Assembly (NCBI GenBank): GCA_039815375.1
Contig: JBCBZJ010000003.1
Span: 96,001-160,000 of the forward strand
DNA length: 64,000 nt
Reading direction: 5' to 3'
Source of the DNA: Verrucomicrobiota bacterium
GTDB lineage: Bacteria; Verrucomicrobiota; Verrucomicrobiia; Opitutales; Coraliomargaritaceae
Made by a program: the position numbers
Shown here: positions 18,001 to 24,000 of the stretch, piece by piece
Numbering within the stretch: position 1 is the first letter of the stretch
How the letters are laid out: each line of letters begins with the position of its first letter

Positions 18001-21000
18001 CAGTATTTCGATGCTCACGGAAGTCCAGGAAAGGAAGGTATGGGGGTCGAAATTACTACCCGCATACTTGCGCACTTGCTCGGCCTTCTCGGTTACGCGC
18101 ATTCTCATGGGCTCGATCATCGTGATCTTGATTCGGATCTGATTTTTATTCAGGAAGACGGCTCGGTCCGTGTCTTGGGTTTTGGCATTAAGGCAGCGCT
18201 CTCGATCGAGCTCTTCGAATCAATTGTATCGGCATCAGTTTCGCCTCTCTTCGCGAACAAGACTGTTGGCCGCTTGAACTCGTTCGATATCATGAGTCCC
18301 GAGTATCAGTCAGGTCTGCCCGAAGACACTCGTGTCGATGTCTACTGTGCAGGTGTTATCGGTTACTGGTTGCTCACAGGGCAAAAACCGGAGCATCCGA
18401 ATTTGTTGATGCCGACAGCTCTGGTAGAGGGCGTTCCTTCGCGTTGGGATGCGTTCTTCACGCGGATCCTCGAACGAAATCCGGACTTGCGGTTTCAGTC
18501 GTGTAAGATGGCCTTGCTCGCGCTTAAGGAGACCGACGATGAGCCGGAATCGGAACGCGCGGGGGTTGTCCAGCGACAGATCGACCGCATGCCGGTTCCG
18601 AAGAGTATTCGTGCGCGAGGAGAGCTTGCGACGCGCATCTACCGTTTGACGGTAATCGGTTGCATCGGATTGACGCTGACTGCGTTGGCTTCGTTCTTTC
18701 TGCGCGTTTCGTTCATGGAGGAGAAAGTCTATACTAAAGATGTCGCGCAGCGTATTGTTGAAGGTCAGGACTCAAACCTGCGGATAAAGGTTCAGCCCCC
18801 TGTCGCGAAACTAGTCTTCAAAGGCTTTACCGAGAGCTTTATCGCAAACGAAGGACTCTTGGAACTGCGAGTTGCCCCGGGGAAGTATGAGGTTCGTGCA
18901 ACGGCCCCCCACCATTTCGAAGATGTGCAGACTATAGAAATTGCAGCGGCTGAACCAGGATTTGTCGCTGACCTTGAGTTTGAACTGAAACCGGCATGGA
19001 CAGATATCCAGATACGTTCCGAGCCCGGCGCATCTGTTTCAGTAGTAGACACGCGTGATACTGAAATCGAACTCGGTTTTACCAACGAGGAGGGGATCTT
19101 TTTTCTAAAAAAAGGACTGTTTGCAGGGGTTTATCAAATCGTCGTCAAAAAAGAGGGTTACCAGCCAACTGTTCTGAAAAACCAGGAATTGGATTCTGGC
19201 GAAGTCTCTGTGATTGAGGTAGAGTTAGCACCACTGCCCGCCAGTTTGGCAGTTCGCACCACCCCTACCGGAGCGCGTATCCTGATCAACGATATTGATG
19301 TCGGCCTTTCTCCTGCTACGGTCGACGACATCATACCGAGCGATCAGTATCTCATCGTTGCTCAGTTGGATGACTACCGTGCGATGGATCGCCGAGTGGA
19401 GATTCGTGCCGGGGAAGATATCACTGTCGACTTTGGCGAACTCACCCGACGCTCTGCTGAGCTCAACATCGAAATTGATTTCGCCGGTCTGAGCGCCAGT
19501 GAATCTCGCCTCTTGCATAGCGACACAGTGGTGACGATCGGTGAGCTCCGTTATCCCTATAACTCCGCAGAGCTGAAGTTTATTCCAGAAGGGGAATACA
19601 TGATTCATGTCGAGCATGCCAAATATATTTCTAAAGCGGTCCAGCTTACACTCGAAGACCGGGATGTGAAGAAATTGGAATTCACCCTACTACCTCGTCC
19701 TGCTGAGGTGCAGCTTGTCCTACCCGGTAATCTGGAGCCAGCGATCCGGCTCAACAGGAAACAAATCGAGTTCACAGGTGAAGCTGTCATTATTCCCGCA
19801 AAAGAACCGGTAGAGTTCGAGTTACGTATACAAAATTATCTTACGATGGTCCGGAAATTTGTCTTGGAGCCAAACGAGAAAGTTACCTGGAATGTGACGC
19901 CGGTTCCGATTCCCGGGCCGACCGAAGGGCAAACGTGGACTATGCCTTATTTCGGCTTCAAATTTGCCTGGGTGCCGCCAGGAGAATTTACGATGGGCAG
20001 CCCGATGGTCGAGCAAGGGCGCTTGCCGAATGAAGGCCCGAAAACAAAAGTGACTTTTACCAAGGGCTTTTGGGCGGGCATCTACGAGGTGAGCCAAGCT
20101 GAATTCAGGGAAGTCGTGGGGCGAAATCCGTCTGAATTTAGAGGTGCGGACAAGCCGGTCGATAGCGTCCTGTGGCAGGAAGCGGTAGATTTTTGTAAGA
20201 CACTTACTAGAATGGAACGTGAGGCAGGGCGCTTGCCTGTGGGCTTTGTCTATCGATTACCGACTGAAGCGGAGTGGGAGTATGCGGCTCGTGGCAAGAC
20301 GATTTCACCTTTTCATTTTGGTGAAACGGCCGATGCCACCTCAGGCAATTTCCGTGGGATTTATCCGAGGGAACTCGAAGGAGGGCAACGGGCTAGCCAA
20401 ACCTATGGCAGTGAGTCAGTCGGCAGTTACAGGCCCAACGCATATGGGCTTTACGACGTCCACGGCAATATCAGTGAATGGACATTGGAAGTCTACAACG
20501 GTCGGCTTGATGGCGGCCAGGTGGTGGATCCTGCTCCTCGAACCGGAGGAAAGCGTTTTGCTGTGCGTGGTGGTAGTTGGGAAGATTTTGCGGTCCGTGT
20601 TCGGTCGGCTGTGCGTGAAGATGTCCGAATGGATACTGAAAGTAACGCAATTGGCTTCCGCGTCTTTATCGCACCCGAGAAGTAATACAAGCAAACCAGT
20701 ATTGCCGTCGAATGGTGGGAGCGACTGGAGTCGTTCCGAGGCCGAGGGCCAACAAGACCGGTCCGGCTGGTGTCGGAACCGGACCACCGAAGGTGAGACT
20801 ACAGCTCACAGACAAACCAGTATTGCAGTCTAATGGTGGGAGCGACTGGAGTCGTTCCGAGGCCGAAGGCCGACAAGACCGGTCCGGCTGATGCCGGAAC
20901 CGGACCACCGAAGGTGAGACTACAGCGCACAAACAAGCCAGTATTGCAGTCTAATGGTGGGAGCGACTGGAGTCGAACCAGCGACCTCATCCATGTCAAG

Positions 21001-24000
21001 GATGCGCTCTAACCAACTGAGCTACGCCCCCATTCCATTACGGAAGGGGCGGAATAAAGGTTTACGACACTGCTGAAGCAAGAAAAAATTTGCGCTATCA
21101 CTTCGATACGCGAAGCATGTGAGGCATGAATATCGTCCGCGTCCAAAATACAGATGGCAGTATTTGCTATGGGTGTGAGCATGGCCGGCAGGTTTTACGA
21201 ATCGAGGGTGACGTTTTCGGTGAATTTGCAGTGACGAATGATGTACTGGATCCGGTGAAGCGCTTAGCCCCGATTGAACCGGCTGCGATCTACGCCATCG
21301 GGCTGAACTATCGCGAGCACGCTGCTGAAATGAAGGCGGAGATACCGGACCACCCTGTGGTTTTTACCAAGAGTACCACTTCGTTACTTGATCCTTATGA
21401 TCCGATTTTGCTACCTCGACATCTGCACAGCGATCAGGTCGATTATGAATGTGAGTTGGCCGTAGTGATCGGTAAACGGTGCAAGAACGTTTCCGTTGAA
21501 GACGCGCTCGATTTTGTCCTAGGCTACACCTGTGCCAACGATGTCAGCGCGCGAGACTGGCAAATGTTTCATGGGGGTGGGCAATGGATCAAGGGCAAGA
21601 GCTTCGATACCTTTTGTCCGCTTGGCCCTATGCTTGTGACTGCAGACGATGTGCCGGATCCGCAAATCCTGCCGATTCGAACAATTCTAAATGGACAGAT
21701 CGTGCAGGAGTCTTTCACCGGCGATATGATTTTCCCAGTTGCGGAACTGATTACTTTTCTCAGCGGGAGCATGACTCTGCTCCCTGGAACGGTCATTCTG
21801 ACAGGAACGCCTCCAGGTGTAGGCATGGCGGCTAAACCTCAGCGTTTTCTGAAGCCGGGCGACGAGATTGTGATCGAGATTACCGGTATTGGAATGCTTC
21901 ATAACACAGTTGAAGCTGAAGCTTAACGAACCTCGATTTTCCAAACTCGAAATGGGGCGTGTGGGTGATTTTCCCATCAGCTCGGGAGCTGATTCAACGT
22001 TCAATACCGGGCGTTCGCATTCTTGCCTGCCTTTCTGCTCGACGCACTTTTGGGTCGCACTATTACGAGACTATGTCTGCCACTGTTTTTACAATAGCGA
22101 ACCAGAAGGGCGGGGTTGGTAAGACCACCACGGCGATCAACCTCAGCTATGCTTTGGCTGAAAAAGGTGTGCGCACGGTGCTGGTCGACCTCGATCCGCA
22201 AGCAAATGCAACCAGTGGTCTCGGGTTGGAAAAACTGGAAGGTGGCAGTCTTTACGGTCCGCTTTGCGGAGAGGGTAATGCGTTGGAAAAAGTCCAGCCG
22301 GTGGGTGCGAGTGACTGCCTCTTTGTTATTCCGTCTGAAGTCGATATGGCCGCTATTGAGATCGAGCTTGTTCAGCGCGGGAATTATCTTGTCCAGTTGC
22401 GTGACGTCGTGGCCCCTTTGCGTGAGTCCGGCGATTACGATGCGATCATTCTGGATTGTCCGCCTGCGCTTGGGATGCTGTCGATGAATAGTTTGGCCGC
22501 AGCCGATTACCTGCTTATCGCCCTACAGTGCGAATACCTTGCGATGGAGGGCCTCGGCCAGATTCTCAAAGTCGTTGAGAAGCTACGTGATGCCGGTGTG
22601 AACGATGGCCTTGAGTTGGGTGGGATTCTTATGACTATGTTCGATCAGCGGACGAATCTTGGCCAACAGGTTGTCGGCGAAGTGCGGAACCACTTCGATG
22701 ATTTGGTCTTTCGCACGATGATTCCTCGCTCGGTCCGGTTGAGTGAGGCGCCGAGCTTCGGTCAGTCAATCTTCGAATATGATGCGTCTAGTCGCGGGGC
22801 GCATGCCTACCGTTATTTCGCCGATGAAGTCATTGAACGATTCAACTTGGTGAAGTAGTAATGCATGCTCTCATGCGTTCGAGATACTTCCAAAGTATTG
22901 CGATTGCGCGCTTCCATCATGAGTCATGTCTGACCTGATTCCTCATCTTGACTCGTTCGTCAGTCACCTTTCGCTGGAGCGACGGGTTTCGGATTACACG
23001 GTCCGAAACTATCGTGCAGCAGTCGAGAGCTTCGTGGAATGGTTGATTGAAACCGGGAAATGGAAGAGTGACTTTGGATCCGTGAGTTCGACCCTGGTCC
23101 GCTCATTCTTGGTCGAGAAGGGTCGGCGGTTGGCGCGTCGAACATTGCACAACCATGTTTCCGGTCTGAGGTCTTTCTATCGCTATCTCCGGGTTCAGGG
23201 TGTCGTGGAGTCGAATCCGTTTACCGGGGTAACCTTGCCGAAACTGGATAAACCCCTGCCGAAGTTTCTAACCGAAGCCCAAATGACGCAGCTGTTGAAT
23301 GCGCCTATTACAGAGTGGAAAGATGGCAAACTCTGTGAGTTTGAAGCCTTTCGCGATAGTCTTGTTCTTGAGCTGCTTTACGGAGGAGGGCTACGCGTTA
23401 GCGAGCTTTGCACATTGACGCATGCCAATGTCGATCTATCTCAAGGGGTGGCTCGCGTTTTCGGCAAGGGGCGGAAAGAGCGCCTTTGTCCACTCGGCCC
23501 GATGGCCACGCAGTGCCTTAAGCTCTTCATCAAACGTTTCGATCTGTGTGCGGATTTGGACGATTATGTGGTTTGCCATCGAAACGGAAAGGCAATGCAG
23601 CCTCGCCAAATCCAGAAGTTATTGAAGACACATCTTGCCGCGGCGGGTCTGCCTCTCGATATGACGCCACACAAGCTGCGCCATTCCTTTGCCACGCACA
23701 TGCTTGATCGCGGTGCCGACCTCCGTGCCGTTCAGGAGCTACTCGGGCATGCGAATCTGTCGACCACCCAAGTCTACACCCACGTTTCGATTGCCCGGCT
23801 GAAGGAGGCGCATAGGCAAGCCCATCCGAGAGCCTAAGCCTCGGCTTCTTCTATAACCGGTGTATTCGCAACCAGGATACGTTTTCGTGCCTTGTGATTC
23901 TCTTCGCGGCCGAAGTCACTCCTCCAGTAGCGGTAGGGAGTCAGGACGATCGCAATACAGATCAACTGGCTTAGCCAGAAAGCCATGAGCCAGTAAAAGC

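Follow-up and report, generated by a model that had tools for sequence, protein, structure and literature searches.

A mobile two-hairpin module in tRNA-linked repeats behind tRNA-Val(GAC) of a Verrucomicrobiota bacterium

Two tandem units with an inverted T-arm behind tRNA-Val(GAC)

In the window (the whole 64,000-nucleotide stretch of contig JBCBZJ010000003.1 that we analyzed, to which all positions refer), ARAGORN places tRNA-Val(GAC) on the minus strand at 20955-21031, and TRF reports a repeat of period 121 (2.4 copies, 93% matches) at 20687-20975. Two tandem 121-bp units behind this gene, which a survey of the genome had pointed out, are real, and each of them is closed by an exact 20-nt copy of the tRNA-Val 3' end (20834-20853 and 20713-20732). 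The units are non-coding and, as the survey's finding also stated, they are missing at tRNA-Val in 8/8 congeners. Read along the minus strand, the locus contains:

20955..21031, minus strand: tRNA-Val(GAC), intact, the target gene
20927..20954, minus strand: trailer, copy 1; its first 21 nt recur after each copy of the tRNA end
20913..20926, minus strand: inverted T-arm copy of tRNA-Val with un-flipped TC, and the reverse complement of positions 52-54
20907..20912, minus strand: loop of 3 nt, which reads GAA on the opposite strand, plus GGT (tRNA positions 52-54)
20854..20906, minus strand: module M1, copy 1, 53 nt, replacing T55-C56
20834..20853, minus strand: last 20 nt of tRNA-Val (57-76), exact copy
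20806..20833, minus strand: trailer, copy 2
20786..20805, minus strand: inverted T-arm no. 2 with loop and GGT
20733..20785, minus strand: module M1, copy 2, with 4 substitutions relative to copy 1
20713..20732, minus strand: last 20 nt of tRNA-Val, exact copy no. 2
20687..20712, minus strand: trailer, copy 3, diverged; adjoins the stop codon of a kinase/FGE-sulfatase gene

When the locus was compared with Rfam, only the tRNA passed the threshold. The sole integrase-family gene nearby (22926-23837) lies on the opposite side of tRNA-Val from the units and adjoins parA.

The segment between trailer and module had been described as a short covarying hairpin. It is in fact an inverted copy of the adjacent tRNA's own T-arm in which the central TC is un-flipped, so the flank on the far side of the module is tRNA-derived as well. 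At the Val locus the arm is identical at 7/9 positions to the reverse complement of tRNA-Val positions 57-65. Across 16 tails, arms matched their own tRNA at 94/144 positions, compared to 72±4 for permuted pairings, and 16 further locus-tRNA pairs gave 104/144 versus 80±4.6. The arm centre is TC in 15/16 tails, while between 3 and 9 of the 9 matches are retained in individual arms. A search for the arm joined to the module yielded 109 matches versus 13 in the control; the arm joined to an empty T-loop yielded 8 versus a background of 8, none of them near a tRNA. At the T-loops of housekeeping tRNA and tmRNA genes the unit consists of the intact gene, its trailer, the inverted copy of its own T-arm (in which the dinucleotide replaced by the module stands un-flipped), a short loop, positions 52-54, the module and the 3' end of the gene. 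This is not the plain tandem duplication that had been assumed, but the order direct copy, inverted T-arm, opened T-arm.

The sister units named by the survey, at tRNA-Arg(ACG) (two units, 19/20), at tmRNA and in mirror image at tRNA-Ser(GCT) and tRNA-Ser(CGA), are all present. The duplication of promoter DNA ascribed to both mirror-image cases was recovered at Ser(GCT), but at Ser(CGA) only ∼18 nt match. In the five second-type units of this genome the arm centres read TC, TT, TT, GA and AA, so the rule on the centre has exceptions.

M1 is a mobile module that replaces two pyrimidines after a T

The module had been taken for an element of tRNA and tmRNA ends. Instead, 86 of its 105 distinct sites lie away from tRNA ends, where it forms clean insertions with an arm at 0/86. 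Among the 23 nhmmer matches in this genome (E<0.01), 13 fall within a MITE, and tRNA/tmRNA units account for only 7. Across all its sites, M1 also occurs in the loops of REPs, including those of the GTAG family, in the T-loops of tRNA arrays and, in frame, in genes. A strict pattern for the right half was positive in 54/101 genomes of the family (control 0), and tRNA-linked units were recognized by pattern in 58/101. M1 is a mobile module of Opitutia that is not specific for tRNAs; the idea of a miniature mobile element, not described before and joined at a fixed point of the T-loop, was right. Its copies are non-coding and measure 41-80 nt; copy 1 at the Val locus carries two variable hairpins and an imperfect 6-bp terminal inverted repeat.

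Filled and empty sites could be paired in the MITE of this genome, in a REP, a tandem repeat, hairpins and an array tRNA-Leu, and, as gaps that keep the frame, in two RTs of group II introns and in a gene with a homologue on contig C37. M1 goes after a T and swaps out the next two pyrimidines, with no target duplication. The target T-YY is usually TTC, which corresponds to GAA on the strand whose hairpins bear GNA triloops; the GNA reading of the triloops falls on this opposite strand by 21:1 and 32:1. The base before the module was T in 132/137 distinct modules. In a set of 13 candidate empty sites, 6 read T-YY, the other 7 resembling chance or ambiguous matches. The stems of M1 are stronger than those in shuffled sequences. 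A stem of at least 5 bp flanks only 7/86 non-tRNA sites (1.6 in shuffled sequences), indicating that targeting to hairpin loops is modest. Clean insertions in T-loops were seen solely in tRNA arrays.

M1 is frequent in group II intron DNA, and both of its orientations occur within one RT gene. The mechanism that moves it acts at the DNA level. In-frame copies made up 17/20 ORF-like sites compared to 36/58 others, an enrichment that is weak because the commonest module lengths keep the frame anyway. M1 inserts 14 residues in frame into proteins and inactivates array tRNAs, and in this way makes a modest but genuine contribution to genome change. Viral contigs gave six matches, two of which are real modules, and no enzyme gene was seen on the module-bearing ones. 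No circle, excision product or intermediate of M1 was seen, nor was a joint across the module in four read runs, which comprised contigs only and are uninformative on this point.

The Val unit belongs with the tRNA-linked repeats of E. coli

The survey had read the units as an undescribed family of miniature elements. The module is undescribed, but the architecture is that of the tRNA-linked repeats (TLRs) of E. coli, which PMC8144298 defines by a position immediately 3' of a tRNA or rRNA gene and by a tail that repeats the gene's 3' end (18-19 bp in E. coli). The RtT repeats of tyrT/tyrV and the repeats at proK and lys belong here (Egan & Landy 1978; Rudd 1999; both cited in PMC8144298); known since 1978, TLRs are presented in that paper (2021) as being without known function. 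The Val unit likewise lies behind a tRNA gene, its tail is an exact 20-nt copy of the gene's 3' end, and it is tandem, as TLRs often are. The inverted arm and the opened T-loop lie outside the published definition and were compared here: in E. coli the repeats at tyrT, tyrV and proK contain an inverted T-arm with un-flipped GA, and their T-loop holds a hairpin module with a GNA loop, lysQ being an exception in which the arm centre is the true complement. When the E. coli-type arm was searched in the family studied here, the un-flipped GA gave 17 matches and the true complement 0. An 18-nt tail copy was searched behind rrfB, and none was found. Since this anatomy is common to the E. coli TLRs, the Val unit is a TLR-type repeat that carries an undescribed module.

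The two kinds of repeat also differ. M1 is unrelated in sequence to the E. coli module, and the RtT model RF00391 found nothing in this genome at E≤1, while its control in E. coli was positive. The junction of M1 lies at 55-56 and that of E. coli at 57-58, so that 20 nt are copied here versus 18-19 in E. coli. Moreover, the GNA strand of M1 is antisense to the tRNA, and M1 also occurs as a free insertion elsewhere. In the literature searched (main texts outside most subscription journals, where the original TLR papers appeared), nothing was found on M1, the inverted arm or a TLR mechanism, nor any printed account of clean free insertions of the module paired with empty sites, of an exact rule for the target or of a footprint in common with E. 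coli.

Several other systems resemble M1 in part. REP/RPE elements (GTAG and CGTC families, PMC3733652) with their RAYTs are also small hairpin repeats, some of them in frame in genes, but a GTAG/CGTC tag stood near an end in only 11/174 modules, no RAYT gene is flanked by M1 except for one tRNA unit ∼0.7 kb distant, and M1 goes into GTAG REPs without being one itself. Ssn enzymes are single-domain GIY-YIG ssDNA nucleases with NTS/SRM hairpins, for which cleavage but not insertion was demonstrated and in whose main text tRNA is unmentioned (PMC11893778). Strand-specific recognition of a DNA hairpin with cutting next to it would suit M1, although the SRM pattern occurred in 0/174 modules and, with two mismatches, 1 and 7 times versus 11 in shuffled sequences. 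DDE-derived MITEs differ from M1, which has a 6-bp imperfect inverted repeat rather than one of 15-30 bp and no target duplication.

Single-strand transposons of the IS91 and IS200-IS605 kinds combine a short target motif, hairpin ends and the absence of target duplication. M1 shares the short motif, the hairpins and the missing duplication, but it loses two target bases, whereas IS91 inserts after a tetranucleotide without loss. IS91-like rolling circle transposition was rejected because target bases are lost; the Y2 transposase profile PF04986 had no match in this genome, weak evidence as the control genomes were silent too. An attC/integron site was rejected as well, the terminal GTT...AAC having a polarity opposite to that of attC. 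Tyrosine-integrase elements that target tRNA genes leave att duplications at T-loop sites. The duplicated tRNA 3' end and the mirror-image 5' cases resemble these, but in M1 units the T-loop core is destroyed, with T55-C56 replaced by the module, and there is an inverted arm and neither integrase nor cargo.

Origin of the units

We consider it probable that M1 is mobile DNA that works as a folded single strand, and that the units stem from insertion into a T-loop combined with fold-back duplication, followed by amplification through recombination. M1 would act as a folded single strand of DNA, and its entry into a T-loop would by itself destroy the tRNA gene. In surviving lineages the insertion may have been joined by fold-back at a hairpin-capped end and a template switch that left an intact upstream copy, so that T-loop insertion with a fold-back duplication sparing one intact tRNA is the most likely way in which the unit was made. 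Such a unit would be a miniature tandem inversion duplication, formed afresh at every tRNA, and recombination between the duplicated tails could then amplify it; there are two units at the Val locus and six in the relative L317. The E. coli TLRs would be the same kind of scar, with a different module and two positions further along the palindromic T-loop. The un-flipped TC is not explained by this scheme, as a simple fold-back would yield the true complement (GA). Also counting against the scheme are the exceptions to the centre rule, the 7 candidate empty sites without a T-YY reading, the modest targeting to hairpin loops and the absence of an enzyme gene linked in cis.

The arm could alternatively be a programmed guide and not a repair scar: paired with the T-arm of the target on the GNA strand, it leaves a tandem G.A/A.G mismatch exactly at the replaced dinucleotide, which would steer a structure-specific nuclease, the whole unit being mobile. 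This would account for a centre that, on the GNA strand, is GA for either module type and in two phyla, for an arm that covaries with its target and for mismatches that fall exactly on the insertion point. However, M1 has inserted precisely and without any arm into 86 sites away from tRNAs and into the T-loops of tRNA arrays, there is no evident way to gain a new guide, and decay of the arms is unrestrained (3 to 9 matches out of 9), which makes a guide unlikely. We find it less probable still that the units are domesticated RNA elements, comparable to E. coli RtT/RrB, with an arm and a module folded within the precursor of the tRNA and a TC/GA centre moulded by selection for RNA structure or processing. 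According to passages of PMC8144298, the TLRs of E. coli give transcripts that undergo processing, and three of these RNAs bind Hfq/CsrA; by sequence inspection the T and C of the arm could pair with module-end bases in the M1 fold, and units occur by pattern in more than half of the family's genomes (58/101). On the other hand, the Val unit is missing in all eight congeners, the stable triloops sit on the non-transcribed strand, mirror-image units duplicate untranscribed promoter DNA, both orientations of the module occur within one RT gene and Rfam has no match; moreover, a role in RNA bears on persistence more than on origin.

The survey's own alternative of decayed att sites, taken here as attR/attL sites of tyrosine-integrase islands whose dispensable T-loop M1 entered later, is disfavoured and quite improbable. 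Ordinary att fragments are present in this genome (Pro, Asn), in the relative L042 the direct homology on the left is longer and no clear arm is seen, and M1 does enter dispensable T-loops. Yet true att fragments have an intact TTC and lie kilobases away, whereas the units span 100-260 bp and have no integrase, and the combination of arm and empty T-loop, found merely at background, largely refutes this origin for arm-bearing units. RNA-mediated retroposition, in which a reverse transcriptase places M1 by target-primed synthesis with small deletions or long target duplications, appears very improbable. A single fixed junction and duplications of variable length do recall target-primed insertion, group II intron DNA is a frequent setting of M1, and RT was found in 27/54 module-positive versus 8/47 module-negative genomes, but this genome, which is 99.9% complete, has no RVT_1 match, M1 is precise at both ends and the inverted arm is not produced by such a model.

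Candidate cutting enzymes

For insertion of a folded single strand, the cutter may be a single-strand hairpin nuclease or transposase acting in trans. A Y1/RAYT enzyme is a tentative candidate and a small GIY-YIG enzyme of the Ssn/SLX1 type an equally tentative one; host repair or another agent is somewhat more doubtful. It is also conceivable, though we hold it doubtful, that one undescribed chemistry of single-strand insertion has left TLR-type repeats as its scars all the way from E. coli to Verrucomicrobiota. In it, a trans-acting ssDNA nuclease (GIY-YIG or Y1) would cut small hairpin modules, the GA of GAA on the GNA-loop strand would be replaced, and the reaction itself would build a T-loop arm that matches the target and has a tandem G.A mismatch, preserving and perhaps re-targeting the tRNA gene. 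If true, such chemistry would account for TLRs, whose origin has been unexplained since 1978, and would be a mechanism of mobile DNA that needs neither target duplication nor a homologous core. With the clean insertions, the target rule and the shared footprint, the origin of TLRs becomes a question on the scale of oligonucleotides with named candidate enzymes, and M1 may lead to new ssDNA-specific enzymes. The candidates encoded in this genome are Y1 proteins at C44:6309 and C62:25733 and a small GIY-YIG protein behind tRNA-Met on contig C12.

At 130 deduplicated sites, GIY-YIG genes were near M1 in 0 cases and RAYT genes in 3. Neither was found at 58 metagenome loci with M1, custom profiles for GIY-YIG and RAYT matched nothing at most module sites, and clustering of the ORFs around modules in search of an autonomous partner in cis returned passenger genes only. 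Y1 genes were present in 50/54 module-positive versus 18/47 module-negative genomes; this co-occurrence reflects the load of mobile DNA, as RT correlates too. Of 30 Y1 loci, just one (L193) is accompanied by a module, which belongs to a tRNA unit ∼0.7 kb off. The co-occurrence of PF01541 is uninformative because this domain is present in 99/101 genomes. A GIY-YIG gene adjoins an M1 unit only at L229 and L130, on one side only, and small GIY-YIG genes adjoin tRNA/tmRNA genes in 15/20 loci of this family.

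The repeat array behind tRNA-Val

The 121-bp unit downstream of tRNA-Val(GAC) is present in 2.4 copies, and each full unit is closed by the final 20 nt of the tRNA, copied exactly, so that the tandem array reported by the survey is confirmed in sequence. The core of each unit is the hairpin module M1 (53 nt here), which occupies the place of T55-C56. With Rfam, the tRNA alone was above threshold at this locus.

17638-20685, plus strand: gene model, 1015-aa protein with kinase-like, PEGA, carboxypeptidase-regulatory and FGE-sulfatase domains
20955-21031, minus strand: tRNA-Val(GAC), the sole tRNA gene in the window
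22926-23837, plus strand: tyrosine recombinase gene beside a parA-like gene

The stop codon of the kinase-like/FGE-sulfatase gene adjoins the array. The recombinase gene, presumably the housekeeping xerC, has no relation to the repeat. The loci at tRNA-Arg(ACG), tmRNA and tRNA-Ser(GCT) match their earlier description; the tRNA-Ser(CGA) locus does too, except that hardly anything apart from the tRNA 5' end itself is duplicated there. As had been claimed, the congeners (8 of 8) lack the unit at Val. Most of them (L235-L242) carry a different hairpin-rich leader after tRNA-Val(GAC), so several small elements share the 3' end of this gene as a hotspot.

M1 inserts after a T in place of two pyrimidines

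An iterated profile search found 23 M1 matches in this genome (E<0.01), of which 13 lie within a MITE of about 283 bp, seven in tRNA/tmRNA units and three in other places, one of the last three probably being spurious.

C11:42588-42870 and ~20 other places (e.g. C47:8430, C59:43733, C62:210522): MITE family with terminal inverted repeats, 235-285 bp
C40:54655-56468: long array of tRNA genes in which several T-loops are non-canonical

A MITE subfamily of 13 copies has M1 in its middle and other MITE copies are empty; at the point where filled copies have T-module, T-CC, T-CT or T-TC stands in six copies that are empty or truncated. The same T-YY rule is obeyed when filled and empty versions of a GTAG REP and of a tandem repeat, both in relatives, are compared; hairpins follow it as well, and so does an array tRNA-Leu, the orthologue of which is empty in this genome. 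In the DNA covered, 13 of 84 distinct M1 sites had a candidate empty site (six T-YY, seven ambiguous or chance-like). Of 137 distinct modules, 132 have a T directly before them; counted by distinct site, the figure is 100 of 105. Taken together, the empty and filled sites and this preceding T show that M1 is placed after a T, that two pyrimidines are lost in exchange and that the target is not duplicated. The array tRNA-Pro(TGG) (C40:55084-55207), overlooked by ARAGORN, has a T-loop cleanly interrupted by M1, as does its counterpart in L025, a relative's locus.

M1 is 41-80 nt long and forms two variable hairpins with stems stronger than in shuffles. Read on the opposite strand, the triloops are GNA by 21:1 and 32:1. 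Mini-hairpins with GNA loops are stable as single-stranded DNA, and this bias points to a DNA strand antisense to the tRNA.

The strict M1 pattern occurs in 54 of the 101 family (Coraliomargaritaceae) genomes. A species-wide scan matched at least 116 stretches; among the titled matches listed, 73 of 80 were from Verrucomicrobiota, mostly Opitutia, five were in other named taxa, all without the left half, and two were unclassified. Two group II intron RT genes contain M1 in frame, and so does a gene, which we take to be purL, that has an uninterrupted homologue on C37. Overall there is a weak frame enrichment (17/20 ORF-like sites versus 36/58 others). M1 insertions in group II intron DNA were seen at L160 (G072:C80:1-907), L163-L166, L077, L129 and L133; one RT gene there has three copies, in both orientations, no further than 0.9 kb away. 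Short TTC-rich arrays of 6-7-nt repeats hold many M1 copies (L008, L017, L091, L161, L173-L177), and other hairpins are nested within M1 at L270 and L275.

tRNA units carry an inverted copy of their own T-arm

Left of M1, the tRNA units read the reverse complement of positions 57-65 of their own tRNA, TC, positions 52-54 likewise reverse-complemented, a short loop and then 52-54 directly. The unit as a whole runs direct/inverted/direct. We located this arm without using the TC in 16 distinct tails, with permuted partners as control; one non-tRNA row was left unscored, and the search did not pick up tRNAs whose stem is GAG. Arm and own tRNA agreed at 94 of 144 positions, compared to 72±4 for permuted partners (p=5e-5). 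In 16 further locus-tRNA pairs, after four previously used loci had been dropped, it matched at 104 of 144 versus 80±4.6, some of these loci being close relatives of the earlier ones. The arm centre was TC in 15 of 16 tails, where GA is expected from a true inversion.

Arm plus module occurred 109 times in the 101 genomes versus 13 times for the control (table sum), with a tRNA or tmRNA upstream of 21 of the 31 matches examined; arrays of M1 units reach six units (L317). Arm plus empty T-loop stayed at the control level (8 versus 8, none near a tRNA), and none of 86 non-tRNA M1 sites showed an arm, nor did either of the two clean insertions in the L025 array. The arm is therefore produced separately for every tRNA, either together with the M1 insertion or later.

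Second-type units and the tRNA-linked repeats of E. coli

Seven of 47 tRNA/tmRNA genes in this genome have a nearby copy of their 3' end, three with M1 and four with other hairpin modules (second type). A fifth second-type unit, at Gly, was found by eye, and the five centres are TC, TT, TT, GA and AA.

C10:25927: Ser(GGA)
C11:256683 region: Pro(GGG)
C31:18418 region: His
C36:21609 region: Gly(GCC)
C52:33724 and 26900: Pro(TGG), the unit being repeated 7 kb away

Leu(CAG) on C54 has kept the arm and lost the module. At L053, L099 and L302 both types seem nested, M1 apparently lying within the inverted arm of a second-type unit. At C24:7335-7570, about 130 bp ahead of tRNA-Arg(TCT), lies a copy of the 5' end of this gene that has no M1.

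The consulted portion of PMC8144298 describes the tRNA-linked repeats (TLRs) of E. coli as 22 repeats whose last 18-19 bp are the 3' end of the upstream tRNA/rRNA gene, and introduces them as without known function. By position, the Val unit falls under that published definition, and it works like a TLR. In the four K-12 regions inspected, the tyrT unit, the three tyrV units and the proK unit contain an inverted T-arm with an un-flipped G57-A58 centre, followed by a loop, the T-arm 5' half, a hairpin module and the tRNA end. At lysQ the centre is the true complement and four other lys units have shortened arms; no tail copy was found behind rrfB. In the family, the E. coli-type arm with a GA centre matched 17 times in 11 genomes (a tRNA upstream in 14 of 17) and the true complement not once. 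On the GNA-loop strand, M1 and second-type modules both sit at a GA of the palindromic T-loop, which the arm opposes with GA; the sequence itself shows this GA-opposite-GA footprint, which unifies both module types.

The Val unit was rejected as an RtT sequence (no RtT match in this genome), as an att site and as a MITE, and M1 was rejected as a GTAG/CGTC REP, as presented in the part of PMC3733652 consulted, after a tag test on the modules. In mostly open-access literature (main texts, the original TLR papers aside) nothing turned up on M1, on the arm or on a mechanism for TLRs: the TLR layout is known but without an explained origin, and M1 and the arm are absent from the literature found.

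A possible route to the units

The target rule, the strand bias, the de novo arm and the amplification are shown. An M1 insertion in the T-loop of a single-copy tRNA would be lost unless an intact gene copy remains, and fold-back with a template switch around the insertion would give the direct/inverted/direct order. Tandem inversion duplication matches such a scheme; our literature search found no paper linking it to tRNA genes. Plain fold-back does not yield the un-flipped arm centre, and because of this the rival reading, in which the arm is a guide, keeps a small share of the probability, unlikely as we consider it next to fold-back with template switching.

Candidate enzymes

Y1 genes occur in 50/54 module-positive versus 18/47 module-negative genomes. 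This co-occurrence is confounded, because RT shows a similar trend (27/54 versus 8/47); RVT_1 had no match in this genome. Ssn nucleases, which are small GIY-YIG proteins, cut single-stranded DNA beside cognate hairpins in a strand-specific manner (PMC11893778), but M1 does not conform to the Ssn hairpin motif.

Small GIY-YIG genes lie beside tRNA/tmRNA genes at 15 of the best 20 loci.

C12:87165-87600; L209-L232; L238: small GIY-YIG genes immediately downstream of tRNA/tmRNA genes

No GIY-YIG gene was found within 1.2 kb of M1 at 130 deduplicated sites, a set in which L229 had been merged away, or at 58 metagenome M1 loci. A GIY-YIG gene adjoins an M1 unit at L229, confirmed by Pfam, and at L130. 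The genes behind tRNA/tmRNA often stand in tandem or have a hairpin-interrupted tRNA copy after them; one follows tRNA-Met in this genome and another follows tRNA-Val in one congener.
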